This document shows, in pieces, positions 1-12,276 of a stretch of 12,276 nt of DNA. The stretch comes from a virus (taxonomy: Duplodnaviria > Heunggongvirae > Uroviricota > Caudoviricetes). The DNA lies in the IMG/VR virus record IMGVR_UViG_2609459774_000003, positions 1 to 12,276 of that record, one strand, 5' to 3'. The number at the start of each line of letters is the position of its first letter. The first letter of the stretch is position 1. The notes under the pieces are model-generated. The model ran no database searches, was not told where the DNA came from, and saw only the letters and a program-made list of their open reading frames with translations. A program made the translations under genes and the position numbers.

Positions 1-651
1 TTACCAGTCAATCCAGAGCGGACCGTGTTCAGCGTAAATATAACTGTACACATCCAGATTATATTTGTGGTCTGTTAAGAACAGGCCGCAAATACATGCC
101 GAAGCTTCCAGGGCAGCGGCTCTGTTACTGAATAACCATGTGGCAACATTCCAGCGTTTTTCTGCATCCCAGTCTTTCTCAAGGCCTGATACCATGAAGA
201 AACCGTTAGTGTTGCCATCAAATAATTCTGTTTCCAGATTTTTAAGCAATGCCTGATGGACTCTTGCCAGGTATTCCGCCGGAATTTCGCCACGAATTCT
301 GATGAGATTGTCATAAACAAACATGTTCCCCGCATATGGCGATTTTTCTTTCTTGTTTTTTAAACCAGCATCATGAGCAAACTGATCAATTTCTTCTTCC
401 GTTGGTTTCGTATTGATGTTTTGCGCTGTCGTTTCTGCAATTTTATTTGCCACACTATCTGAGTCGTGTTTATTTACAGACGCACAGAAATACAATCCGG
501 TAAACGCATCGCGCACATTACGAGCCATATTATCAGTGTCTTTTTTCGTTACCGATTCCAATGCAAGTTCGTTCAGACGATGACGAAGTGTGTGTGCTGC
601 AATCTCCTGGATTGAAGTAGGTAAATCTTTAAATTCCATCGTCAACCTCAT
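1..651 (-). CDS. Hypothetical prophage early-left operon protein (216 aa), function unknown
   Basis: Complete ORF with ATG at 651..649 and stop (TAA on minus strand) at 3..1. Its ATG overlaps the stop of the upstream small ORF (CTGATG on minus strand), suggesting translational coupling. No family recognised by eye; moderately AT-rich. Confidence 0.55.
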   Translation of the reverse strand: MRLTMEFKDLPTSIQEIAAHTLRHRLNELALESVTKKDTDNMARNVRDAFTGLYFCASVNKHDSDSVANKIAETTAQNINTKPTEEEIDQFAHDAGLKNKKEKSPYAGNMFVYDNLIRIRGEIPAEYLARVHQALLKNLETELFDGNTNGFFMVSGLEKDWDAEKRWNVATWLFSNRAAALEASACICGLFLTDHKYNLDVYSYIYAEHGPLWIDW

Positions 652-884
652 CAGTCAGAGTTTCTTGCTAACCAGCGATGCGCGCCAGCTTCGGTTTTAA
701 ACGTTTTGCTTTTGGTATACGTCATCGCGGTGAACGTGCCGTCCTGGTTGGGAAACACGCCGCACACCAGAGATTCGTTGTTGCCAAGATCGATAGTATC
801 CATGTTGACCTCATTTCCCCTTAACGCCGGGGTAGCGGAACAAAAACCTGCTGCATAGTTATTAAAGTTGAACCCTGCCGTCAT
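651..884 (-). CDS. Small prophage protein; size and position are consistent with YdaF/YdaG-like small proteins of Rac-type prophages
   Basis: ORF 884..651 on minus strand; GAGG motif 6 nt upstream of the ATG at 884. An internal ATG at 803..801 is also preceded by GAGGT with a 5-nt spacer and would give a 50-aa product, so the true start is ambiguous. Lies downstream of the leftward promoter candidate. Confidence 0.45.
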   Translation of the reverse strand: MTAGFNFNNYAAGFCSATPALRGNEVNMDTIDLGNNESLVCGVFPNQDGTFTAMTYTKSKTFKTEAGAHRWLARNSD

Positions 885-984
885 GTTCTTACGCCTCGGG
901 CTGGCTACTTAACCCCTGACCACTGCCTGGTAACTCGAGGTATTGCCCTGTATTGTGTGGGACGGGATGGGTTGGTATGGGAAA

Positions 985-1026
985 ACTATAGGAAATGCCT
1001 AATTACTTGTCAATAGGCTATGCCTA
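985..1026 (-). promoter_or_regulatory. Leftward PL-like promoter with two operator half-palindromes (OL-like)
   Basis: On the minus strand: -35 TTGACA (1013..1008), 17-bp spacer, -10 TATAGT (990..985). 13-bp dyad sites TAGGCTATGCCTA (1014..1026) and imperfect TAGGAAATGCCTA (989..1001), centres 25 bp apart. Forms a 23-bp perfect inverted repeat with the PR module. Confidence 0.45.
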
Positions 1027-1121
1027 ATAATTTGGGCGCAACCTAATAGGTGATGGTTTGTGGAAGAGGTAGTAGGAGTTAACTAACGGGAACTAGGAAT
1101 TTCCCGTCGGACCATATAAGT

Positions 1122-1598
1122 TTAAGTTCCTGTCTTGGTGATGTTCTGGCTTTTCCGTTTTGATTCTTGATTTTTCAGATAGTTAGCTACCTTCATTTCC
1201 ATTGCGGCAATGTAGGCGCGAACGTCATGATCAACCCAACTAGGCTCCGTAGCATTTCCAGATAAGATGAAAGCCACAATTGCTCTTTTTTCATCAGAGG
1301 CGGCTTGATAAAGGCTGTTTATGTCTAAAAGTTCACTTTTTGTATCTGAAGTGGATGGGGTTGGTATGGGGTATTCGTTAAGCCCCCAATGCTCTGGACC
1401 AACCACATCAGAAAAGAAACGCCATAGTTCTGGAAGTTTGTCTTTACTTATCGAACCTTTCTTAATCCAGTCATGGATTGATGGTGGTTGGACTTTGAAA
1501 TGACGTGCGATTTCCGCCTTTGATTTGACGGCTCCTGATGCAATTTTTTTGTTAATGGCCTGCTCTATCGCTCGGCCTAAGTCTTTACCACTAAGCAT
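1122..1598 (-). CDS. racR: Prophage repressor, RacR-like (158 aa)
   Basis: 158-aa ORF; sequence recalled as matching the Rac prophage repressor RacR, with an HTH-like segment near the N-terminus. AGGAGA RBS 8 nt upstream of the ATG at 1598. Divergent from the ydaS-like gene, a classic immunity-region layout. Confidence 0.8.
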   Translation of the reverse strand: MLSGKDLGRAIEQAINKKIASGAVKSKAEIARHFKVQPPSIHDWIKKGSISKDKLPELWRFFSDVVGPEHWGLNEYPIPTPSTSDTKSELLDINSLYQAASDEKRAIVAFILSGNATEPSWVDHDVRAYIAAMEMKVANYLKNQESKRKSQNITKTGT

Positions 1599-1627
1599 TG
1601 CTTAATAGTCTCCTATGCGCATCGCGT

Positions 1628-1695
1628 TAGGCAATCCCTATTCTCGATGTATTAGGCATAGCCTATTGACAATTTCATTAGGCTAAGCCTAATAT
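1628..1695 (+). promoter_or_regulatory. Rightward PR-like promoter with tripartite operator (OR-like) in the racR-ydaS intergenic region
   Basis: -35 TTGACA (1666..1671), 18-bp spacer, -10 TAATAT (1690..1695). Three 13-bp dyads TAGGC-N3-GCCTA: TAGGCAATCCCTA (1628..1640), TAGGCATAGCCTA (1653..1665), TAGGCTAAGCCTA (1679..1691), centres 25-26 bp apart. Confidence 0.5.
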
Positions 1696-1722
1696 TGTTG
1701 CGTGTTTTTTGGAGTTCATTCG

Positions 1723-2043
1723 ATGAAAAAAGATAACTATTCATTCAAACGAGCTTGTGCTGTTGTCGGTGGGCAATCAGCAATGGCTAGGCTTTTAGGT
1801 GTATCTCCTCCAAGCGTAAATCAATGGATCAAAGGTGTACGTCAGTTACCTGCTGAGAGATGTCCTGCGATTGAACGAGCAACAAAAGGTGGTGTCCTGT
1901 GTGAAGAACTTCGTCCTGATGTTGATTGGACATACTTACGACGCTCGTCATGTTATTCGCAGAATATGTCGATGAAGCAACCAAATGACGAAAACGATCA
2001 TAAAAACGCAGAAATGCATGACGTGTGGCAATCAGGCAGATGA
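1723..2043 (+). CDS. ydaS: Cro-like HTH regulator, YdaS-like
   Basis: ATG at 1723 preceded by GGAG (1711..1714); the ORF-track start at 1702 lacks an RBS. N-terminus MKKDNYSFKRACAVVGGQSAMARLLGVSPPSVNQWIKG is HTH-like and recalled as YdaS. Divergent from racR. Confidence 0.75.
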   Translation: MKKDNYSFKRACAVVGGQSAMARLLGVSPPSVNQWIKGVRQLPAERCPAIERATKGGVLCEELRPDVDWTYLRRSSCYSQNMSMKQPNDENDHKNAEMHDVWQSGR

Positions 2044-2248
2044 TCCGCATCACATCATGGGTCATGGACTGGGAGGGATGGGAACAAAGGCTGATGATTT
2101 GTTTGTTATTCCGCTGTGCCGTAAATGCCATAGCGAACTACACGCCGGGGTAAAAGATTTTGAAGAAAAACACGGCAGCCAGCTGTTGTTGCTGATTCGT
2201 TTTTTAATGCACGCGAGAAATTCGGGTGTCCTGAAGTGGAAAGCATGA
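1985..2248 (+). CDS. DUF1364/YbcO-like Cys/His-rich putative zinc-dependent nuclease
   Basis: 87-aa ORF with CxxC ... HH ... PLCRKCHSELH pattern resembling nin-region YbcO-type proteins. Its 5' end overlaps the ydaS-like ORF (start ambiguous, 1985 or 2018); its stop TGA (2246..2248) abuts the rusA ATG. Confidence 0.55.
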   Translation: MTKTIIKTQKCMTCGNQADDPHHIMGHGLGGMGTKADDLFVIPLCRKCHSELHAGVKDFEEKHGSQLLLLIRFLMHARNSGVLKWKA

Positions 2249-2614
2249 ATGACTGAACGCATAGAATTTGTTTTGCCTTACCCGCCAACGGTGAACACTT
2301 ACTGGCGACGTCGTGGCAGCACATATTTTGTATCAAAAGCCGGTGAGCGTTATCGCCGTGATGTGGCGCTTATTGTTCGCCAGCAGCGACTGAAATTAAA
2401 CCTGTCCGGACGGCTGGCGATAAAGATTATTGCAGAGCCACCGGATAAACGTCGTCGTGACCTGGACAATATCCTGAAAGCACCACTGGATGCGCTGACG
2501 CATGCCGGACTTCTCATAGACGACGAGCAGTTTGATGAAATCAATATTGTGCGCGGTCAGCTCGTTCCTGGGGGGCGGCTGGGCGTGAAGATTTACAAAA
2601 TTGAGAGTGAGTGA
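2249..2614 (+). CDS. rusA: Holliday junction resolvase RusA
   Basis: 121-aa ORF; the RRRDLDN segment and overall size match the RusA family. ATG follows immediately after the upstream stop (ATGAATG), and its stop overlaps the next start (GTGA). Confidence 0.85.
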   Translation: MTERIEFVLPYPPTVNTYWRRRGSTYFVSKAGERYRRDVALIVRQQRLKLNLSGRLAIKIIAEPPDKRRRDLDNILKAPLDALTHAGLLIDDEQFDEINIVRGQLVPGGRLGVKIYKIESE

Positions 2615-3168
2615 TCGTAAATATGATATACCCGGAAATTACAGGCAAAAGCGGCGAGCATTTACGTCTAAAAACGCTGGAAGCCGTCTGGATCCAGGGG
2701 AAATTACGGATGTGGGGGCGTTGGTCGTACATAGGTGGTGGCAAACCAGGAAATATGTTCAATCAGTTGCTGGCATCCAAAACACTTACAAAAACTGCGA
2801 TCAATGAAGCTCTGCGCAGAATAAAAAAATCAGGGATTGATAAAACTGAGCTGGAAGCGTTTTTGCGTGAGATGATCAACAGCAAGCAAAAGAGCGGGCT
2901 GGCTTATTGTACTGATGCCGAGGCGTTATGTATCGATCGGGTAATTAGTGAAGTGTTGGCAGAGCATCCGGGATTGATTTGTATCCTCCGACAAAGATAT
3001 GAAGGGCTGGGTATGAGCAAGCTGAAAATGGCAGAACAGTTAAAAAAGAATCACCCTGACTGGAGCCTGAAAACTTGTAGAAATCGCATTGATGTTTGGT
3101 TGGCGATGGCTGAAACCATGCTTTTCCTTCCAATGTGCGTGGCACTTCGGTGCTTTTCTGATAACTGA
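2611..3168 (+). CDS. Putative late-gene antiterminator Q-like protein
   Basis: 185-aa ORF in the canonical position after the nin/rusA genes. GTG start at 2611 overlaps the rusA stop; alternative ATG at 2623. Assignment is mainly positional, with weak recalled similarity to small Q-family proteins. Confidence 0.5.
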   Translation: MIVNMIYPEITGKSGEHLRLKTLEAVWIQGKLRMWGRWSYIGGGKPGNMFNQLLASKTLTKTAINEALRRIKKSGIDKTELEAFLREMINSKQKSGLAYCTDAEALCIDRVISEVLAEHPGLICILRQRYEGLGMSKLKMAEQLKKNHPDWSLKTCRNRIDVWLAMAETMLFLPMCVALRCFSDN

Positions 3169-3197
3169 TGATAGAAGTGCATCAGCTATCAATCTTG

Positions 3198-3226
3198 TTG
3201 ACGTTCATCAAGGTCTGGACAATACT
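3198..3226 (+). promoter_or_regulatory. Candidate sigma70 promoter downstream of Q (pR'-like position)
   Basis: TTGACG (3198..3203), 17-bp spacer, AATACT (3221..3226), about 30 bp upstream of the ATPase start. The -10 is weak; this is a sequence-only guess. Confidence 0.25.
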
Positions 3227-3257
3227 TACGTTAAGTTCCAACATATGGAAGATAAGA

Positions 3258-4448
3258 ATGATATTTACACGATTGAGATTTATCAATTTGTACGCTTTTG
3301 AGGATGCAGAGCTTAACCTGTCCTATCCAAGGAAACCTGTAAACATGCCTCTTGATGGGGAGTTTTTGGCTGGACGGCCTAAATTTTACTATAAAAAAGT
3401 CTGTATCATAACGGGGGGAAATGCTTCAGGTAAGACGTCACTAGGGCGAATTCTTTGTGGAATTCAGGTGTTTCTAAGAACCAAAGAGTTGCGGAGTAAT
3501 CTGCGAGTGAATAATAAAAATAATGATGCTTCGTTTGAAGTGGACTTTGCTACGGAGGATCATTTTCATCATCGTTTGTATGTACGCTTTGCTACCAGTG
3601 AAGGCGGAGCGCACATAATCAAAGAAATTAAATATGGTTTTGTTCAAATAGCATTAAATGATTCTTGCCATAAAACCACAGAAAAACTGAATCAACTCTT
3701 TTCTGGAAGGGCCCCAGAAGATACAGAATATTTTTTTCAGGAACTAGCTACTGATAGCGAACCAGTTGTATTGGAGTTTTTCAAGCAACTTAAGTTTTTT
3801 GGTGGATGGTACTATTTGTTGTCTGAAACTAAAGAGAGTACCACTGCAATTTCAGGAATGAATAAAAATATTCTTGAAAGGATAATTCGCACTTTCGATT
3901 CAAGTATTATAGGAGTTACCGAGATGCTGGAGTCTGAAAGTGACGGGGATGAAAATAAATCATCTGCGGTTTATCTGATTAAATTTAAAAACTCTGATTC
4001 TCTTGTCGTTACCAGTAAAGGTGAAATAATTAACTCAGACCGTCTTTCTCGAGGAACATACGAGGCAGTGACGGTAGCGCATTTTATAAGCGCTATTATC
4101 TCTGATTGTGAAAGACTAGGTAAGCAATCTCTAATACCATCAATGACTTATTTTCTTGACGAGAAATTGGCTTATACACATTCAGAGTTAGAGCGTATGA
4201 TTGTGGCGCTGATTATATCTAATTTGAAAGAAAATACTCAGTTTTTCTATACAACGCATAACATGGATATTTTTGAGTTGGATCTGCCTGTTCACTCGTT
4301 CATTTTTATTAAAAAAACGAAAGACTATTCGGAGTTTGTTGAAGCAAATTCAGTTGTTAAAAAAAATGACCGTAGCATGCGAAACGCTGTTGAGAGAGAT
4401 GTCTTTGGTGTCTTACCTGACACATCATTAGTATCGGAGCTACTCTGA
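3258..4448 (+). CDS. OLD/AAA_21-like ABC-type ATPase (396 aa), candidate defence-system ATPase
   Basis: N-terminus MIFTRLRFINLYAFEDAELNL typical of SMC/RecF-like ABC ATPases. Walker A ITGGNASGKTS, ABC signature-like LSRGT, Walker B YFLDE, H-loop TTHN, with about 200 aa inserted between Walker A and the signature. AT-rich relative to flanks. The ORF-track start at 3168 is an RBS-less upstream extension; ATG at 3258 chosen. Confidence 0.75.
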   Translation: MIFTRLRFINLYAFEDAELNLSYPRKPVNMPLDGEFLAGRPKFYYKKVCIITGGNASGKTSLGRILCGIQVFLRTKELRSNLRVNNKNNDASFEVDFATEDHFHHRLYVRFATSEGGAHIIKEIKYGFVQIALNDSCHKTTEKLNQLFSGRAPEDTEYFFQELATDSEPVVLEFFKQLKFFGGWYYLLSETKESTTAISGMNKNILERIIRTFDSSIIGVTEMLESESDGDENKSSAVYLIKFKNSDSLVVTSKGEIINSDRLSRGTYEAVTVAHFISAIISDCERLGKQSLIPSMTYFLDEKLAYTHSELERMIVALIISNLKENTQFFYTTHNMDIFELDLPVHSFIFIKKTKDYSEFVEANSVVKKNDRSMRNAVERDVFGVLPDTSLVSELL

Positions 4449-4981
4449 TGGCGGGGTTGTCTAAAATAAGAATAATTTTTGTCGAAGGTGAAACAGAAAA
4501 CTCTCTTTTTCTGAAGATGAAACAACAGAGAGTTATTGATGCCAAATCAATTGTAAAAAGAAACTTTTGGCAAGAGAGCATAAGAAATTATGCGATTACT
4601 ATTCCGAAGGGAAGTGATATACTAATTGTCTTTGATAGTGATGAAGTGGAGCAATCTGCAAGATTCATTGAAAATGTAAAGTTCCTTAAAAACAGAGGGC
4701 ATAAAGTTTATCTTTTGCAGCAGAAAAGAAATTTTGAGGAGGAGTTGGCCTGGTGTTGCGGAATTCCTGTAAAAAAACTAATTGCTGGGTTCTGTGCAAA
4801 AAAAACATCGGGTATAAATGATTTCAAGAGAGATTTTATTGCTTGTAACAATCAACTTTCAAAGTTACTGAAAATGGGCATGCAGGAAACTAAGTGGTTT
4901 ACAAGAGATTTACATGCTGTATTGGAGCCTGTTGCAAGTTTTAAGTCATCTTTTTCTAAACATTTCAGGTTAACAAGATGA
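4448..4981 (+). CDS. Small TOPRIM-domain protein (177 aa), putative nuclease partner of the ATPase
   Basis: N-terminal IIFVEGETE (conserved TOPRIM glutamate) and ILIVFDSDE (DxD motif). ATG overlaps the ATPase stop (TGATG), with GGAG 8 nt upstream. AT-rich like its partner. Confidence 0.7.
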   Translation: MAGLSKIRIIFVEGETENSLFLKMKQQRVIDAKSIVKRNFWQESIRNYAITIPKGSDILIVFDSDEVEQSARFIENVKFLKNRGHKVYLLQQKRNFEEELAWCCGIPVKKLIAGFCAKKTSGINDFKRDFIACNNQLSKLLKMGMQETKWFTRDLHAVLEPVASFKSSFSKHFRLTR

Positions 4982-5611: not shown

Positions 5612-6661
5612 ATGGCCAATACTGTAAAAATATCCAGTTGTGAGTTAATCAACGCTGATTGCCTGGAATTTATCCAGACCTTACCGGAAAATTCTGTCGA
5701 TCTGATAGTCACAGACCCGCCATACTTTAAAGTGAAGCCCGAGGGCTGGGATAACCAGTGGGAGGGCGACGATGATTACCTGAAATGGCTGGACCAGTGT
5801 CTGGCGCAGTTCTGGCGGGTACTGAAGCCTGCCGGAAGTCTTTACCTGTTCTGTGGTCATCGCCTGGCATCTGACACCGAAATCATGATGCGTGAGCGCT
5901 TTAATGTGCTGAACCACATTATCTGGGCGAAGCCGTCCGGACGCTGGAACGGGTGCAATAAGGAAAGTCTGCGGGCGTATTTTCCGGCAACAGAGCGCAT
6001 TCTGTTTGCAGAACATTATCAGGGACCGTATCGCCCGAAAGATGATGGCTATGTGGAGCAGGGGCGCGAGCTAAAACAGCACGTCATGGCCCCGCTGATT
6101 TCTTACTTTCGTGATGCGCGTAAATCACTGGGAATAACGTCAAAACAGATAGCGGAAGCCACCGGAAAGAAAAACATGGCTTCGCACTGGTTTGGTACCA
6201 GTCAGTGGCAGTTACCGAACGAGGGTGATTACAACAAATTGCAGGCGTTGTTTGCGCGTGTTGCGGCAGAAAAACATCAGCGCGGGGAACTGGAAAAGCC
6301 ACACCACCAGCTGGTCAGCACATACAGTGAGCTGAACCGGCAGTATACGGAACTGCTGAGTGAATATAAAAATTTGCGGCGGTATTTCGGTGTGACGGCG
6401 CAGGTTCCGTACACCGATGTCTGGACGCATAAACCGGTGCAGTACTATCCAGGAAAACATCCGTGCGAAAAACCGGCAGAAATGCTGCAGCAGATAATCA
6501 ACGCGAGCAGTCGTCCGGGAGACCTGGTTGCAGATTTTTTTATGGGTTCAGGTTCAACGGTAAAAGCGGCGATGGCACTGGGGCGTTGTGCGATTGGTGT
6601 TGAGCTGGAGACCGGACGTTTTGAACAGACAGTCAGGGAAGTTCAGGATTTAATCGTTTGA
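5612..6661 (+). CDS. DNA N6-adenine/N4-cytosine methyltransferase, beta-class (orphan, phage-type)
   Basis: Motif IV DPPY (VTDPPYF) near the N-terminus and motif I FxGxG (DFFMGSGST) near the C-terminus, the beta-class order. No adjacent restriction endonuclease is visible. Confidence 0.85.
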   Translation: MANTVKISSCELINADCLEFIQTLPENSVDLIVTDPPYFKVKPEGWDNQWEGDDDYLKWLDQCLAQFWRVLKPAGSLYLFCGHRLASDTEIMMRERFNVLNHIIWAKPSGRWNGCNKESLRAYFPATERILFAEHYQGPYRPKDDGYVEQGRELKQHVMAPLISYFRDARKSLGITSKQIAEATGKKNMASHWFGTSQWQLPNEGDYNKLQALFARVAAEKHQRGELEKPHHQLVSTYSELNRQYTELLSEYKNLRRYFGVTAQVPYTDVWTHKPVQYYPGKHPCEKPAEMLQQIINASSRPGDLVADFFMGSGSTVKAAMALGRCAIGVELETGRFEQTVREVQDLIV

Positions 6662-6710
6662 AACGGATGAGATTGCAGAATTAATTACGCACCATTATTA
6701 TTCTGCTCCC

Positions 6711-6786
6711 GGCCCTTTAGCTCAGTGGTGAGAGCGAGCGACTCATAATCGCCAGGTCGCTGGTTCAAATCCAGCAAGGGCCACCA
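6711..6786 (+). tRNA. ileZ: tRNA-Ile2 (anticodon CAU, lysidine type; could be annotated tRNA-Met by software)
   Basis: Manually folded cloverleaf: acceptor GGCCCTT/AAGGGCC, D-stem GCTC/GAGC, anticodon loop CTCATAA, T-arm GCTGG-TTCAAAT-CCAGC, encoded CCA. Closely resembles E. coli tRNA-Ile2. Confidence 0.8.
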
Positions 6787-6793
6787 TCACATA

Positions 6794-6870
6794 CCGCCAT
6801 TAGCTCATCAGGATAGAGCGCCAGCCTTCGAAGCTGGTTGCGCGGGGTTCGAGTCCTCGATGGCGGTCCA
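6794..6870 (+). tRNA. argN: tRNA-Arg (anticodon UCG)
   Basis: Manually folded cloverleaf: acceptor CCGCCAT/ATGGCGG (unusual C1:G72), D-stem GCTC/GAGC, anticodon stem CCAGC/GCTGG, loop CTTCGAA, T-arm with one G:U pair, encoded CCA. Confidence 0.7.
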
Positions 6871-6883
6871 TTATCTGCATTAT

Positions 6884-6960
6884 GCGTTGTTAGCTCAGCC
6901 GGACAGAGCAATTGCCTTCTAAGCAATCGGTCACTGGTTCGAATCCAGTACAACGCGCCA
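6884..6960 (+). tRNA. argO: tRNA-Arg (anticodon UCU)
   Basis: Manually folded cloverleaf: acceptor GCGTTGT/ACAACGC, D-stem GCTC/GAGC, anticodon stem ATTGC/GCAAT, loop CTTCTAA, T-arm ACTGG-TTCGAAT-CCAGT, encoded CCA. Confidence 0.8.
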
Positions 6961-6974
6961 CGCTTATTTTTCCA

Positions 6975-6997
6975 GGCTCGCTTCGGCGGGCCTTTTT
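6975..6997 (+). terminator. Rho-independent terminator after the tRNA cluster
   Basis: Stem GGCTCGC / GCGGGCC (one G:U pair) with a UUCG tetraloop, followed by TTTTT (6993..6997). Confidence 0.6.
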
Positions 6998-7135
6998 CAT
7001 ATCCGCGCCACGCCCGGCGCACATCAAAAAACCACAGAGCCTTTCAGGGATGAGCTTACGGGATGGTCAGTGTGACTTTCTCTGTGGGCTGGTCACCCCC
7101 GGGCGCAGGCTCACCCACTAAAAGGAAAAGTCACG

Positions 7136-7561
7136 ATGTTTGGTATTTTCAAAAAGAAAACCCGCAAGGCCATTACCGAGGTGAAGAAGATGGAGAACCG
7201 TGACGCAGTGGAGGCGACCGTCTGGGGCGCGTACTCCATTGCATACGCTGACGGCACCTGTGACGCGAAAGAAATCGCGGTACTGGAAAAAACCATTGCA
7301 GCACTTCCTGTCTTTGCGCCGTTCTCCGGTGAGATTGCACAAATGAGTGCAAATATCCGCGCCCGTTATGAAGCGTCGCCGCGTTCTGCCAATGCCGAAG
7401 CTCTTCGTCAGCTGGCTGATGTTGCCGGTACTGATGATGCAGTTAATGTGCTGTGCCTGTGTCTGGATATCGCTGACCAGGACGGTATCGGTCAGGAAGA
7501 AGAAGCGCAACTGAAGAAAATTGCGCAGGCGCTGCAGTTGCCGCTGGAGCAGTACCTGTGA
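7136..7561 (+). CDS. TerB-like domain protein (tellurite-resistance TerB family fold), cargo gene downstream of the tRNAs
   Basis: 141-aa ORF with AAGGA RBS; acidic helical protein whose ADG/DQDG and EEEAQL features resemble TerB-like domains. Sits where stx or other cargo genes sit in related phages. Confidence 0.5.
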   Translation: MFGIFKKKTRKAITEVKKMENRDAVEATVWGAYSIAYADGTCDAKEIAVLEKTIAALPVFAPFSGEIAQMSANIRARYEASPRSANAEALRQLADVAGTDDAVNVLCLCLDIADQDGIGQEEEAQLKKIAQALQLPLEQYL

Positions 7562-8559
7562 AAAGTGCGCGCCTTGTGCTGGCTGTCATCCTGTTGTTTC
7601 TGGTACAGGCTGCAGCCGTACACACGTTGTACGGGTATATCGATTATCTTGCCAGAAATCTGTTGCCGGACATGTGTGATGAAGACTGGTTGTACCGGCA
7701 CGCCAGAATCAAACGCTGCCTGCGAAAAGATGCGGTGACAGCCCGGGGATTTGTGCGCTGGGATGGCGTAGAGGGAACACCTGTATTGCCAGCGGGAACG
7801 CAGATCCAGCGTGATGATCAGGTGACCTTCACCACGACGGCGACGGTGACCGCAGCCGATGGTCTTCTCCGGGTGCCTGTTGTGGCAGATGAACCGGGGG
7901 CGGCGGGGAATACGGATGATGGTATTGCCATGCAACTGGGAACACCCGTCAGTGGTCTGCCGTCCACAGGGTACGCGGACACCATTACAGACGGTGAAGA
8001 TATTGAAAATCTGGAAATATGGCGTGCCCGCGTTATGGAACGTTATTACTACATTCCACAGGGGGGCGCAGACCCTGATTATGTTATCTGGGCGAAAGAA
8101 GTTCAGGGTATTAACCGTGCATGGACTTTCAGACACTGGAAAGGCATTGGAACGGTTGGCGTGATGGTGGCGACAAACGATCCGGAACATCCGGCTCCGG
8201 ATGAAAGCGTCATTAATGCAGTCAGAGAACACATTCTTCCTCTGACACCGGTTGCCGGAAGTGGATTGTATGTATTCGGTGCCACAGAAAAAGTCATCCC
8301 GATGACGATTGCATTATCGAAAGACACACCGCAGATCAGGACTGCAATAAAAGCAGAGCTGAATGCACTGATGTTACGGGATGGTGTGCCAGAGGGGCGT
8401 ATGTATCTGTCCAGAATCAGTGAGGCCATCAGTTTGTCTGCTGGTGAAGTGGCTCACCGGTTAATCGTCCCTTCATCGGATATTGACCTGGGGGAGACCG
8501 AGCTTCCGGTGCTCGGCGAGATCACCTGGCAGGCTTATGACCCGGCAAGGAGTAAATAA
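7558..8559 (+). CDS. Baseplate J-like protein (Mu gp47 / P2 gpJ family), probably 5'-truncated or fused at a deletion junction
   Basis: The conserved baseplate-J core appears only about 25 aa from the start. The preceding N-terminus (GTG start overlapping the TerB-like stop) is hydrophobic and unlike the family. The rest is GC-rich and tail-like. Confidence 0.6.
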   Translation: MKSARLVLAVILLFLVQAAAVHTLYGYIDYLARNLLPDMCDEDWLYRHARIKRCLRKDAVTARGFVRWDGVEGTPVLPAGTQIQRDDQVTFTTTATVTAADGLLRVPVVADEPGAAGNTDDGIAMQLGTPVSGLPSTGYADTITDGEDIENLEIWRARVMERYYYIPQGGADPDYVIWAKEVQGINRAWTFRHWKGIGTVGVMVATNDPEHPAPDESVINAVREHILPLTPVAGSGLYVFGATEKVIPMTIALSKDTPQIRTAIKAELNALMLRDGVPEGRMYLSRISEAISLSAGEVAHRLIVPSSDIDLGETELPVLGEITWQAYDPARSK

Positions 8560-9518
8560 TGGATTCGTTACAGGATGATTATACAAAGCTGCTGTACGGA
8601 CTGATGCCGCCGGGGCCTGCATGGAGCGATACCGACGGCGTGCTTGATGGTCTGGCACCATCGCTTGTACGTGTTCATCAGCGGACTGATGAACTGATGG
8701 CTGAAATCGATCCTGGTCAGTCAACAGAGCTGATTGAACGTTATGAAGAATTGTATGGTTTACCTGACACCTGCTCTCCTGTTGGAGCCCAGACATTACG
8801 CCAGCGTCAGCAACGGCTGGAAGCAAAAGCCAATGTGGCTGGTGGCATAAATGAGCAGTTCTTCCTGGAGCAGCTTGAGGCGCTGGGATATACCGGCGTG
8901 ACGATCGAACAGTTCCAGCACCTGGATGCAAGCCCCGATCCGGAATGGGGTGATCGCTGGCGTTATTTCTGGCGTGTGACGTTGCCGGTGGATGCCGGTG
9001 CTCAGTGGCAGACATGTTCGGACACCTGTAACACACCGATCCGGACGTGGGGTGATACGGTTGCGGAGTGCGTGATTAATAAATTATGTCCGTCGCATAC
9101 TGTTGTCCTTTTTGCATATCCGGATGAGTCTGGTGAAGGGCAACAAGCCGCCCTGACTATAAACAGCCTCTCCTTTCAGGCCGGACACAAGACGACTGAG
9201 CCATTAGCGATTAATCATACAGGTGTTCATTTTGCGGTTGTTCCGGCACTGACAGGTAAGCCGCTGACAATTAACCGGATTAACTTTTATGCCGCCCGTC
9301 CGATGGCAGAACCACTGGTACTCAGCAGGGCGCAATTGCACTCAGGTCTGCCGACAACGGACCCCATGACCATGAACAGCGCACAGTTGCAGACGGGATA
9401 CAGGACCCGCTCCCCCGTACCGGTTAACAGTATGCAGTTGCAGACAGCCAGCAGAACCCGTGAACCGTTATTGATTAATCACCCGGGACTGCATTTTGCT
9501 GTGGTCACGTCCGAATGA
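8559..9518 (+). CDS. YmfQ-like (DUF2313, Mu gp48-like) baseplate protein with a ~125-aa repeat-containing C-terminal extension
   Basis: ATG overlaps the upstream stop (TAATG), with AAGGAG RBS. The N-terminal ~190 aa is recalled as YmfQ-like. The C-terminus carries degenerate repeats (EPLAINHTGVHFAVV / EPLLINHPGLHFAVV; AQLHSG / AQLQTG / MQLQTA). Confidence 0.7.
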   Translation: MDSLQDDYTKLLYGLMPPGPAWSDTDGVLDGLAPSLVRVHQRTDELMAEIDPGQSTELIERYEELYGLPDTCSPVGAQTLRQRQQRLEAKANVAGGINEQFFLEQLEALGYTGVTIEQFQHLDASPDPEWGDRWRYFWRVTLPVDAGAQWQTCSDTCNTPIRTWGDTVAECVINKLCPSHTVVLFAYPDESGEGQQAALTINSLSFQAGHKTTEPLAINHTGVHFAVVPALTGKPLTINRINFYAARPMAEPLVLSRAQLHSGLPTTDPMTMNSAQLQTGYRTRSPVPVNSMQLQTASRTREPLLINHPGLHFAVVTSE

Positions 9519-9541
9519 CATAAAATAAAAGGAGAGCCGCT

Positions 9542-10591
9542 TTGAATATTATTAAACTCGAAAGTTTTCGACAAATTCCGGCGAATGAGGGATTGTGCGA
9601 GAACTATTATTCAACAAATATTATTTCAGCACTGAACGAAAACGGTGTCACGCTTATCAATGATATGTCCGGTTCTGTAACATCCGTCTGTCGTGGCACT
9701 CAGGCCGTAAATACTGTAGAAAGAACGGGGCTGATTTTTACGACACCCTCATATGTCACACTGTACAGCACACTTCCGGACTTAAAAGCCTCAGCTGTAC
9801 AGCTGGGATTTCGTCTGACATTAAGTGCGGGAAAGAAATATTCATCTTCGCCATCCCACATCAGGATTAATGGCTATTCATTTACAACCCCGTATCCTGA
9901 TGAAGCAGCCAGTTATTACTATGAAATTTTCGCAACGCGAAACGAAAACGGCTATGTCTCAGCCAGTCTGTACTGCAACCGCTCATTAGTTGGAAATACA
10001 TCGTTTTATGTACCAGATGACCGGACTGACAAAATTCAGGTGAGTATTGGTGGTGGTAACAATATTTTTTCATCGGGTGCATCCGGCACGTTAATGCTGG
10101 GTGATATGTACTGTGGAACAGTGACATACGGTAGAAATAATAGTGCAGAACCCGCCCTGCTCGGAAGCATTGAGGTCAGATACAGCCCGGTAACGGCATT
10201 TACCGGTGGAAGCGCCAAAAACTCACTGAATAAAGATATTGTCACGGGGCTGAACACCTCTGACAGCGAGGCCGGATATCTGATGCTCTCGCCGTCCCTG
10301 AATGCAGCACAGGCCACGTTTGGTGCGGTGGATAACAGCAACAGTGATGTTGTGGCCGTTATGGCCTCGGTCACTTACCGCGGTGCTGATGCCCCCAATA
10401 ACCGCCTGGCCTGGAAAGTGAAAAATGGCAGCCATGAAGGCGCAACGATTACAGAGAATGGCGTACAAAGCGACACAAACAGCTGGACGACTGTCTCACA
10501 GAGTTTTATGACCCAACCAGGAGGGAGCACTCCCTTCGCTAAGGGTGAACTGACTTTTACAGCGGAATTGTTTAATCAGGCAAGGACATAA
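9542..10591 (+). CDS. Hypothetical tail-associated protein (349 aa), S/T/N/G-rich, possible receptor-binding or cargo protein
   Basis: TTG start with a strong AAGGAG RBS 7 nt upstream. Lower GC than the neighbouring baseplate genes. No recognisable catalytic motifs; composition is typical of beta-rich fibre or lectin-like domains. Confidence 0.55.
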   Translation: MNIIKLESFRQIPANEGLCENYYSTNIISALNENGVTLINDMSGSVTSVCRGTQAVNTVERTGLIFTTPSYVTLYSTLPDLKASAVQLGFRLTLSAGKKYSSSPSHIRINGYSFTTPYPDEAASYYYEIFATRNENGYVSASLYCNRSLVGNTSFYVPDDRTDKIQVSIGGGNNIFSSGASGTLMLGDMYCGTVTYGRNNSAEPALLGSIEVRYSPVTAFTGGSAKNSLNKDIVTGLNTSDSEAGYLMLSPSLNAAQATFGAVDNSNSDVVAVMASVTYRGADAPNNRLAWKVKNGSHEGATITENGVQSDTNSWTTVSQSFMTQPGGSTPFAKGELTFTAELFNQART

Positions 10592-10621
10592 TTCTGATAT
10601 TTCATTCACGGGAGGTTTAAT

Positions 10622-11731
10622 ATGCACAGAATTGACACTCCGACAGCAGTTAAAGATAAATTTGGCCCGGGCAAGAACGGATTTACTGACGGGAATATTC
10701 GTACAGGGCGTCATGCCACCTGGCTGAACAGTGCCATGTGGGATGCCCTTCAGGAGGAAATCTGTGGTGTCATTGAGAAGGCCGGGATAGAACTGAATAA
10801 AGAGGAACACGACCAGTTATATAAAGCCATATTATTACTGGTTGGCGGTGCGATTAACGAAGAGGCATTGCTGATAAAAAATAATCTTTCGGATGTCGAA
10901 GACAGTGATGAGGCTGTTGAAAACCTCGGATTAAAACCCACGGTGGATAAGGCAAAAAATGCCGTTCAGCGTGATGGAGACACCATGACCGGGGAGCTGA
11001 AAATCCGTGGCGTTAATGCACTGAGGATTTTCAACGAAGCCTTTGGTCTGATTTTTCGTCGTTCGGAAGAGTGTCTGCACCTCATTCCTACCCGGGAAAA
11101 TCAGGGCGAGAGTGGTGATATTGGGCCGCTACGCCCCTTTACGCTTAATCTCAGGACCGGTCGCATAACTATGGGACATGGTCTGGATGTTACAGAAGAT
11201 GTATTTGCAGGCCGTTTTGCGATTAACAGCAGTAACGGAACGTGGATTCAGATGCGTGACAACAACGTTATTTTCGGGAAAAACAGGATAAATACTGATG
11301 CTGCTCAGGCGCTTCTGCGTCAGGATCATGCAGACAGAAAGTATTTCCTGGCTGGTCTTGGGAATAAGCAGTTTGGCATTTACATGATAAATAATAGCCG
11401 TACGGATAATGGTACGGACGGTCAGGCGTATATGGATGATGCGGGAAACTGGCGATGCGGGCGTCAGGTTATACCGTCAGACTACGGAAACTTCGATGCC
11501 CGCTACCAGACCAAAACAGGTGGCGTACAGAATTTTCAGTATACCAGTGAGGTGTTTTACAACCCGGGCGGGAATGAGCACAGCTGGACGTTTCGAGCAC
11601 CTTCTGGTTGTGTTTTGTCAGGCATTAATGTTCAGGATACTGGCCGTAACTCTGCAGACAATATCGGTGGCGTGTATTACAAACAGGCTCAGATTTATAT
11701 TAATGGTGCATGGCGATCTGTATCAGGTTAA
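10622..11731 (+). CDS. Side tail fibre protein (Stf-like)
   Basis: N-terminus MHRIDTPTAVKDKFGPGKNGFTDGN matches the conserved N-terminus of enterobacterial prophage side tail fibres. DGDTMTGEL motif present. GGGAGG RBS. Confidence 0.8.
   Translation: MHRIDTPTAVKDKFGPGKNGFTDGNIRTGRHATWLNSAMWDALQEEICGVIEKAGIELNKEEHDQLYKAILLLVGGAINEEALLIKNNLSDVEDSDEAVENLGLKPTVDKAKNAVQRDGDTMTGELKIRGVNALRIFNEAFGLIFRRSEECLHLIPTRENQGESGDIGPLRPFTLNLRTGRITMGHGLDVTEDVFAGRFAINSSNGTWIQMRDNNVIFGKNRINTDAAQALLRQDHADRKYFLAGLGNKQFGIYMINNSRTDNGTDGQAYMDDAGNWRCGRQVIPSDYGNFDARYQTKTGGVQNFQYTSEVFYNPGGNEHSWTFRAPSGCVLSGINVQDTGRNSADNIGGVYYKQAQIYINGAWRSVSG
10913..10938. other. Candidate Hin/Gin/Pin-family invertase crossover site inside stf
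   Basis: GCTGTTGAAAACCTCGGATTAAAACC: the left half TTGAAAACC and core match the hix/gix consensus as recalled. It falls at the ENLGL-encoding constant/variable junction of the fibre gene, as in Mu G and e14 P segments. Confidence 0.4.
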
Positions 11732-11745
11732 TTAAGGAGAAAATA

Positions 11746-12276
11746 ATGGAACTCTCAAACATTACGCGTTACTACCCTGAAGACATGCCTTATGGTGACG
11801 GCATTCAGTATTTCCGTAGTGAAGACGGGCAGGATTTTTATGAATCACTGGATAAATTCACGAAGAAATACAAGCTGTGCACGCATCCTGAAACCGGCGT
11901 TATTTATTCCGTGGCGGAAGATGTATCCCGTCTTTATCCCGTTGGTTTTACCATTGTGGAAGTGGATGAACTACCGGATGGCTTTTGTATAGAGGCGCGC
12001 TGGTATTATAAAGACGGTGAAGTACTACCGGTCCCTGTTGACTACAGGCAGCAGGCAGAGTCGGAGCGTGCACGTCTTACTGCGATTGCCGAACGGGAAA
12101 TATCCGATAAGAAGACGGATTTACTTTTGGGAATCATCGGTGATGAAGAAAAAGAAAAGCTGACAGTCTGGCGCATTTACGCGAAATTGCTGCAGGCGAT
12201 GGATTTCAGCACCATCACTGATAAAACCTCATATAACGCCATTGAATGGCCCGTCTCTCCGGAAGCCTCTTCCTGA
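11746..12276 (+). CDS. Tail fibre assembly protein (Tfa-like, 176 aa)
   Basis: ATG at 11746 with AAGGAGA RBS 5 nt upstream. N-terminus MELSNITRYYPED is typical of Tfa/U-family chaperones. Stop is at the window end (12274..12276). The ORF-track start at 11710 overlaps stf and lacks an RBS. Confidence 0.8.
   Translation: MELSNITRYYPEDMPYGDGIQYFRSEDGQDFYESLDKFTKKYKLCTHPETGVIYSVAEDVSRLYPVGFTIVEVDELPDGFCIEARWYYKDGEVLPVPVDYRQQAESERARLTAIAEREISDKKTDLLLGIIGDEEKEKLTVWRIYAKLLQAMDFSTITDKTSYNAIEWPVSPEASS

Follow-up and report, generated by a model that had tools for sequence, protein, structure and literature searches.

Does a TerB-like gene that lies directly behind three rare-codon tRNA genes mark a site at which a phage has exchanged its Shiga toxin genes (stx) for other cargo? 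The question is raised by a 12,276-nt stretch of viral DNA, IMG/VR record IMGVR_UViG_2609459774_000003 (hereafter the window; positions are window coordinates, and features lie on the + strand unless stated). A first-pass annotation of this DNA had proposed that it carries the tRNA trio of Shiga toxin-converting (Stx) phages, followed by replacement cargo in the stx slot. We find that the cargo consists of two genes, the tciA-tciB module of phage P1, and that a deletion has cut the second of them short. Taken as a whole, the region is quite probably the late-operon leader of a lambdoid prophage with two independent accessory modules, kept in a defective remnant. Within this explanation, which genes are present, where the modules end, what was deleted and how the cargo is distributed come directly from the comparisons below. 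The relatives compared were E. coli E200086, AST205, AST85 and E100341, and phages pPE4, Evi, P1 and 06-3462.

All three tRNA genes stand where they had first been placed: ARAGORN found exactly three in the window, at identical coordinates, and each scored well above the 29-bit gathering score of Rfam family RF00005. A search of the window at Rfam gathering scores returned no RNA family besides these three. The tRNA genes, and the two elements that frame them, are as follows.

6673..6701, + strand: pT-like promoter element, TTGCAG-17 nt-TATTAT, the homologue of an element that phage 06-3462 carries under the annotation 'pT, putative tRNA promoter'
6711..6786, + strand: tRNA-Ile2, anticodon CAU, ileZ-type, CCA encoded (ARAGORN; Rfam RF00005, 72.5 bits)
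6794..6870, + strand: tRNA-Arg, anticodon UCG, argN-type, CCA encoded (ARAGORN; Rfam RF00005, 56.0 bits)
6884..6960, + strand: tRNA-Arg, anticodon UCU, argO-type, CCA encoded (ARAGORN; Rfam RF00005, 70.1 bits)
6974..7001, + strand: intrinsic terminator with an 8-bp G+C-rich stem, TTCG loop and T-run (terminator scan; hairpin at 6974-6993)

A megablast of the window region against phage genomes returned 291 records, mostly Stx2-converting phages. The block at 6560-7009, which holds a methylase 3' end, the pT promoter, ileZ, argN, argO and the terminator, is 91.6% identical to Stx2 phage 06-3462, and the tRNA genes match the Stx2 phage copies at 76/76 (ileZ), 75/77 (argN) and 76/77 (argO) positions. 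The trio is thus the ileZ-argN-argO module of Stx2 phages, as had been proposed. The window Ile2 tRNA is also identical at 76/76 positions to five further loci. Stx2 phages (06-3462 and the 933W/Sp5 type) share with the window the tRNA order and spacing, pT, the terminator and the methylase 3' end, whereas their stxAB and nanS-p are absent from it and its Q gene is of the DUF1133 type rather than the 933W Q type. The tRNA set between q and stx is known to differ by Stx subtype (PMC7366253).

Homology to 06-3462 stops at 7009, about 43 nt short of the stx2A start of that phage, which places the gene after the tRNAs in the stx slot, in agreement with the first-pass annotation. No Stx homology was found in the window. 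When viral contigs were scanned for the 3' 25-mer of ileZ, at least 120 loci were obtained, of which 114 were long enough for tRNA scoring and 100 had enough downstream sequence for a cargo count; all counts from these loci are among the matches listed. Within 1.5 kb downstream of the tRNAs, TciA and/or TciB were present at 31 of the 100 loci (both at 25) and Stx at 8, and 20 loci matched no reference protein. The first recognised gene downstream was NanS-p at 29/100 loci and a holin at 12/100. At 16 of the 31 TciA/TciB loci the order was TciA, TciB, NanS-p; an arrangement of tRNAs, TciA, TciB and NanS-p mirrors the tRNAs, stxA, stxB and NanS-p of 06-3462. We conclude that tciAB is an alternative cargo that often fills the slot, outnumbering stx about fourfold in this sample, and not a replacement of stx. 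The idea of cargo replacement at a conserved hotspot therefore keeps its shared slot, while 'replacement' is overstated, given 31 TciA/TciB loci against 8 with Stx. The lysis cassette that normally bounds the slot is gone from the window. For lambdoid prophages of pathogenic E. coli, it has been described that TerB (PF05099) is conserved beside the holin/lysozyme operon (bioRxiv 10.64898/2026.05.13.724894). The arrangement of tRNA trio and TciA cargo is common, annotated in many genomes and already known.

The gene in the slot, and the short stretch that precedes it, can be delimited precisely.

7110..7135, + strand: left end of the cassette, a 26-nt 5' untranslated region with ribosome-binding site (indel boundary against AST85; sequence read)
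7136..7561, + strand: tciA, encoding a 141-amino-acid (aa) TerB-fold protein, homologue of phage P1 TciA (Pfam TerB, PHROG 632, P1 comparison)

An AAGGA Shine-Dalgarno sequence lies at 7122-7126, 9 nt 5' of the tciA ATG. The 141-aa protein matches the Pfam TerB profile PF05099 with an E-value of 1.3e-7 and 32.4 bits, above the gathering score of 24.4 bits, so that the earlier description of a TerB-like gene with its own ribosome-binding site stands; the profile aligns to TciA in part only, over residues 11-57. Over its full length, the protein matches PHROG 632, 'tellurite resistance', a family in the moron category (E 2.8e-64), and it is 85.8% identical to P1 TciA over all 141 residues. Close homologues are publicly named 'tellurite/colicin resistance protein' or 'TciA'. 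An AlphaFold model built from 24 homologues (pLDDT 85.2, pTM 0.81) predicts six helices and a disordered basic N-terminal tail (residues 1-18). Searched with Foldseek, this model gave a sole strong match, 2h5n (probability 1.00, TM 0.52-0.55), and the predicted fold also matches the COG3793 tellurite-resistance protein 2ou3. Two D-G-x5-E motifs are invariant in seven phage TciA homologues, down to 34% identity. The designation 'TerB-like' is supported by the sequence and by the predicted fold. NCBIfam held no match for TciA or TciB, PADLOC had no model matching either, and a PDB sequence search with TciA returned chance-level matches to polynucleotide phosphorylase only. Ter operons (terZABCDEF of IncHI2 plasmids and O157 islands) share the TerB profile and fold with the window TciA, but no terC, terD, terE or terZ lies near tciA, among the window open reading frames (ORFs) or in the intact relatives. 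Moreover, the partner in Ter operons is TerC, whereas window-type TciA pairs with a 50-aa DUF3927 peptide.

This pairing is evident in the relatives. Behind tciA in pPE4, Evi, E200086 and AST205 comes a gene about 50 codons long; its start overlaps the tciA stop codon, and it belongs to DUF3927 / PHROG 1470, 'TciB-like'. TciB is a 50-aa peptide with two hydrophobic segments either side of D-F-T-G-R. Across 80 viral loci kept for neighbourhood counts, which are close relatives only (TciA 88-100% identical), an intact TciB lies directly downstream of tciA in 79, and an E200086-type holin is the next recognised gene in 58. The exact window TciA protein occurs in 564 index blocks, and the order TciA-DUF3927-holin-holin-M15 peptidase was found in 8/8 of the listed places with identical TciA. 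AST85 has the same backbone without a cassette, its tRNAs running directly into the holin; aligned with AST85, the cassette is an indel of about 640 bp that starts at 7110, 26 nt before the tciA ATG. As expected of a moron, tciAB is thus an indel between conserved backbone genes; its G+C content of 53% is close to the 51-59% of its flanks.

The cargo, then, corresponds to the tciA-tciB gene pair of phage P1. Beyond the close identity of TciA, a TciB-like small membrane protein follows tciA in the window's intact relatives, and in P1 a tRNA-Ile2(CAU) gene adjoins the cassette as well. The two contexts differ otherwise. Homology between P1 and the window is limited to the tciA-tciB coding block, and tciC is absent from the window. 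The P1 cassette belongs to the ban operon, under C1 control, rather than to a late/lysis operon, and a module of the P1 type needs an intact TciB after TciA, whereas the window tciB is cut after 16 codons. P1 trnI matches the window Ile2 tRNA at only 65/76 positions, and lies downstream of the P1 cassette rather than upstream; at this identity, we rejected a single acquisition of the two tRNA genes.

Two further observations concern the module at large. A 196-aa protein (P0060) is a natural fusion of TerB (PF05099) and DUF3927 (PF13064), with TciA and TciB in one polypeptide, an architecture consistent with the two proteins acting together. Separately, unrelated phages also have tRNA genes beside TciA-TciB: those for Asn, Thr and Ile2 in P1/P7 (L010, L142), and for Trp and Cys in the Erwinia jumbo phage Asesino (L141). 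Over the 80 viral loci, there are 0.66 tRNA genes per kb up to 500 bp from tciA, and at most 0.03 per kb at 2-5 kb. This closeness may come from a position that both share in accessory regions.

What became of the partner gene in the window is seen at the right end of the cassette.

7558..7605, + strand: tciB 5' remnant, 16 codons, DUF3927 small membrane protein (alignment with TciB of E200086, pPE4, P1 and Evi)
7603..7605, no strand assigned: 3-bp GTA microhomology at the deletion junction (similarity ends at 7605 on the left and begins at 7603 on the right)
7606..8559, + strand: baseplate J/gp47 gene without its first 42 codons (Pfam Baseplate_J, E 5.6e-53; compared with the 360-aa J of E100341)

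The remnant opens with a GTG start that overlaps the tciA stop codon. At the junction, a lambdoid late region on the left meets a Mu-like tail module on the right; from 7603 on, the DNA is 99.9% identical to the end of E100341 that runs from baseplate J through gp48/YmfQ to the tail fibre, a module that sits beside yecD/aspS in that genome. The join is in frame and creates a chimeric ORF at 7558-8559 of 333 aa, in which residues 1-15 come from TciB, the next is a valine common to both proteins, and the rest is baseplate J from residue 44 to 360. The deletion runs from tciB codon 17 through baseplate J codon 42, and the window lacks the holins, the endolysin, the terminase, the head genes and most tail genes. 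A microhomology-mediated deletion removed these lysis, packaging, head and tail genes, and left TciA without its normal partner.

An assembly chimera that joined two prophages of one genome would give a similar picture. The junction sequence is absent from 5,426 complete E. coli genomes, from GTDB representative genomes, from IMG/VR and from JGI metagenomes, and both halves occur separately within single genomes such as E200086, as a chimera would predict. However, the exact 333-aa protein and junction recur in one independent Logan contig (L139, from another sequencing run, ERR15823401), which is 99.1% identical to window 6711-12276 over 5.6 kb (49 differences) and carries a different upstream module. 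In addition, the join is in frame with 3-bp microhomology, and analogous deletions of the same prophage family are found in three other genomes. Because the junction is present in a second, 0.9%-diverged contig, the deletion is real and inherited, and we rejected an assembly chimera at 7603-7605, which now has next to no probability. Defective lambdoid/e14-like remnants that retain their regulatory and tail-fibre ends are a known class; within it, the window breakpoint (tciB codon 16/J codon 43) is found in just one other public contig.

The same contig also marks a boundary on the other side of the locus. Homology between the window and L139 starts at the first base of the Ile2 tRNA (6711; L139 2873), and upstream of ileZ, L139 carries a different antiterminator gene (PF03589), a TfpB-like gene and tRNA-Gly(CCC) in place of the methylase gene. 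Since the homology edge falls on the first tRNA base, the tRNA edge acts as a module boundary.

How would a cassette in this position be expressed? Its timing of expression, and the biochemistry of TciA and TciB, are the parts of the explanation that we infer. Between the tRNA terminator and the cassette lies one more element.

7010..7109, + strand: conserved backbone leader, from the tRNA terminator to the lysis operon (alignments with E200086, AST85 and pPE4)

This 100-nt leader is kept where the cassette is missing (AST85) and where the tRNAs are missing (pPE4). It had no Rfam match, and a simple scan found no sigma-70-like promoter in it. Over 6997-7135, upstream of tciA, that type of scan, which could miss weak promoters, likewise detected no promoter-like site. 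With a terminator upstream and no detectable promoter, it is most likely that only Q-modified RNA polymerase, which resists terminators, transcribes the cassette. We therefore picture tciA-tciB as a promoterless insertion that separates the conserved leader from the holin genes; its products would be late proteins, co-expressed with the lysis cassette and holins through terminator read-through. During lytic growth, soluble TciA would act with TciB at the inner membrane, probably in Ter-like membrane protection or exclusion. We count in support of late-only expression that curators of P1 place no promoter directly upstream of tciA; there, tciABC lies between the C1-controlled Pban promoters and ban. 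The leader also contains long imperfect hairpins, and the fold of 6961-7140 has a z-score of -2.59.

Several points weigh against late-only expression and a role in lysis. A weak or non-sigma-70 promoter may lie in 7010-7135. tciA has a host-like composition with 0/142 rare codons, and it is retained in a defective prophage in two lineages; such codon usage and retention would suit a gene of use to the lysogen as well. TciA and TciB of P1 are annotated 'by homology', and a 2022 survey of P1 plasmids calls their role unclear. Finally, TciA/TciB lie in the ban operon in P1 and among hypothetical genes in the N4-like phage SP-058, and with both of these placements away from lysis genes, a lysis-specific role is not general.

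The main rival reading draws on some of these same points. It takes tciA for a lysogenic-conversion moron with its own promoter in the lysogen, conferring tellurite/colicin resistance or phage exclusion. TerB homology and fold, the PHROGs category 'moron', the host-like codon usage (P ~0.003 for 0/142 rare codons) and the survival of tciA with the tRNAs in a remnant in two diverged backgrounds all favour it. Nevertheless, the cassette begins 26 nt before the ATG without a detected promoter-like site and behind an intrinsic terminator, and TciB, an obligate partner present at 79/80 loci, is destroyed in the window. The window has no other ter genes, and PADLOC gives no match. We therefore disfavour a lysogen-expressed conversion gene and regard it as unlikely, and retain the reading of tciAB as late genes dependent on read-through.

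The tRNA genes form a unit of their own. The pT-like element differs from the annotated pT of 06-3462 at 3/29 positions and was missed by a simple consensus scan because its -35 hexamer matches just 3/6 positions; by homology, we infer that it drives the tRNAs. Transcription from pT would stop at the terminator, which is homologous to the annotated terminator 3' of argO in 06-3462. The trio would add decoding of AUA (by the CAU tRNA after lysidine modification), AGA/AGG and CGA/CGG.

ARAGORN, which names tRNAs by anticodon alone, labelled the CAU tRNA 'Met'. This tRNA and K-12 ileX agree at 68/76 positions, pair 6:67 differing by a compensatory change, and the exact window sequence is called tRNA-Ile by PGAP in four complete E. 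coli genomes; given this resemblance and naming, the original assignment to Ile2 holds. TilS is reported to use the acceptor pairs C4:G69 and C5:G68, and both are present in the acceptor of the window tRNA (GGCCCTT...AAGGGCC). The CAU tRNA is predicted to read AUA once modified with lysidine. ArgRS recognises anticodon C35 with G36 or U36, together with A20 in the D-loop; the two Arg tRNAs have anticodon loops CTTCGAA and CTTCTAA, and A20 in both D-loops. That the tRNAs fold cleanly is borne out: 21/21 stem pairs are standard in each of the window copies of Arg-UCG and Arg-UCU, and the window Ile2 copy has a single A27xC43 mismatch, which is family-wide (80/82 viral copies).

Codon usage fits the usual codon-supply explanation for the trio. 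Per 1000 codons, window genes contain 13.7 ATA, 10.7 AGA and 5.2 AGG, compared with 3.1, 1.8 and 0.3 in flanking host genes, and CGA and CGG are about two-fold enriched in window genes over the same host genes. A separate proposal, argued for stx2A (87.5 rare codons per 1000), is that the tRNAs serve the adjacent cargo. We rejected it for tciA, whose complete lack of the five rare codons has a probability of about 0.003 at the window's own rate; the trio does not serve its neighbouring cargo here.

The members of the trio differ greatly in conservation. At 82 viral loci in register, nucleotide diversity (pi) is 0.004 for the nearly invariant ileZ, over the 51 nt outside the search pattern, and 0.055 for argO, intact in 75 copies. 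By contrast, the middle tRNA has 39 alleles and a pi of 0.26, with fully paired stems in just 39/82 copies; at least one stem pair is broken in 43/82, and some copies lack T54/A58. The argN-type gene is the most variable and often decayed member of the trio, and the window copy is intact. Its C1:G72 pair, to which the first-pass annotation had drawn attention as unusual, is real, and is accompanied by U73. It is not peculiar to the window: C1:G72/U73 is found in 53/82 viral copies of the middle tRNA and is a trait of the argN family. Over the 114 scored loci, the architecture Ile2/Arg-UCG/Arg-UCU occurs at 59, Ile2/Arg-UCU with no callable middle tRNA at 26, and one with a Lys-UUU/Thr/Gly set at about 15, the remainder being rarer variants. 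Elsewhere, the middle anticodon is Lys-UUU in Evi and several viral loci, and Arg-CCG in one locus.

Such variation could reflect conflict rather than decay. On this alternative, the trio would be mainly anti-defence, providing tRNAs as decoys or replacements when anticodon nucleases, from the host or from colicins, attack, with the middle slot tracking the conflict. Both tRNA-Lys(UUU) and tRNA-Arg are targets of anticodon nucleases. The diversity and allele count of the middle slot far exceed those of its neighbours, and the middle anticodon switches among relatives (Arg-UCG, Lys-UUU, Arg-CCG). A Met/Pro/Arg triplet has been published (PMC7366253). On the other hand, much of the variation is plain decay, as seen in the 43 copies with a broken stem and the 26 loci without a callable middle tRNA, and the two invariant tRNAs match classic rare codons that are enriched in prophage genes. 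We consider a mainly anti-defence trio improbable, and prefer codon supply.

A bolder version extends the same thought to the cargo, and we give it equally little credence: TciA-TciB, as a conserved two-gene membrane module, would be functionally tied to phage tRNA clusters, and the locus, with its fast-changing middle tRNA, would be a late-leader anti-defence island. It is based on tRNA adjacency in lambdoid prophages, P1/P7 and the Erwinia jumbo phage, and on a middle tRNA that is Arg-UCG, Lys-UUU, Pro or decayed. If true, the island would counter colicin-type or anticodon-nuclease-type attack, beyond codon supply and a passenger gene.

Sequence changes in the middle slot include abrupt ones. 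E200086 and the Logan contig carry a middle-tRNA allele with 14 substitutions in otherwise near-identical DNA. The alleles differ at 14/77 positions, 12 of them transitions, within DNA that is 99-100% identical (window 6794-6870; L003 21175-21251; L139 2956-3032). The substituted allele has C1xA72, C2xA71, T54>C and A58>G, and PGAP does not annotate it in E200086. The remnant with the deletion is thereby found with two middle-tRNA alleles, since the window and the Logan contig differ in this gene. This allele switch suggests a gene-conversion patch between paralogous prophage tRNA clusters. A common variant of the slot (CCGCCATTAGCTTATCAGGAAGAGCAGACGACACGATAACAGGG...), found in L014, L021 and about 20 similar viral loci, keeps the acceptor ends around an interior that is not tRNA-like; ARAGORN makes no call in it, and downstream lie a 117-aa ORF and a shortened TciB-like ORF.

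The identification of TciA/TciB, the truncated partner, the defective prophage and the recognition of C1:G72 as a family trait of a decaying tRNA make this locus more ordinary than it first appeared, and beyond correct annotation its significance is small. In lambdoid prophages, the leader from Q to the lysis genes serves as a common cargo site, which may hold stx, tciAB, nanS-p or nothing, and defective prophages retain such accessory modules while lysis and structural genes go. A second cargo site lies directly after Q, on the far side of a methylase gene.

5612..6661, + strand: full-length N6/N4 DNA methyltransferase gene (Pfam PF01555, E 1.9e-44; PADLOC MTase_II, E 4.9e-159)

The last ~100 nt of this gene (6560-6661) form the left end of the block common to Stx2 phages. 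In phage 06-3462, the methylase survives before the tRNAs only as a 153-bp remnant, annotated as a 'DNA methylase' coding sequence, whereas the window gene is full-length.

Between the Q-like gene and the methylase gene, a two-gene insert occupies 3168-4981. Its first gene encodes a 426-aa AAA ATPase with a PADLOC match to AbiLi (E 7.6e-26), and its second a 177-aa protein with a weak match to AbiLii (E 1.5e-3). The insert has a G+C content of 34-37%, and rare codons are more abundant in it than anywhere else in the window (68 and 90 per 1000 in the two genes). At this site, relatives carry Pkinase and PP2C genes, other genes or nothing, and this varied content makes it a second hotspot for cargo, directly behind Q. 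Reading by eye, we noted a promoter-like sequence at 3198-3226 (TTGACG-17 nt-AATACT), inside the ~90 nt that separate the Q-like gene from the AbiLi-like one; it may be the late promoter.

At the other end of the window, a 319-aa ORF (8559-9518) matches Mu gp48 over residues 13-187 only. The equivalent in relatives is a RefSeq pseudogene of the YmfQ family without a C-terminus, and a fusion or read-through may account for the last ~130 residues of the window ORF.

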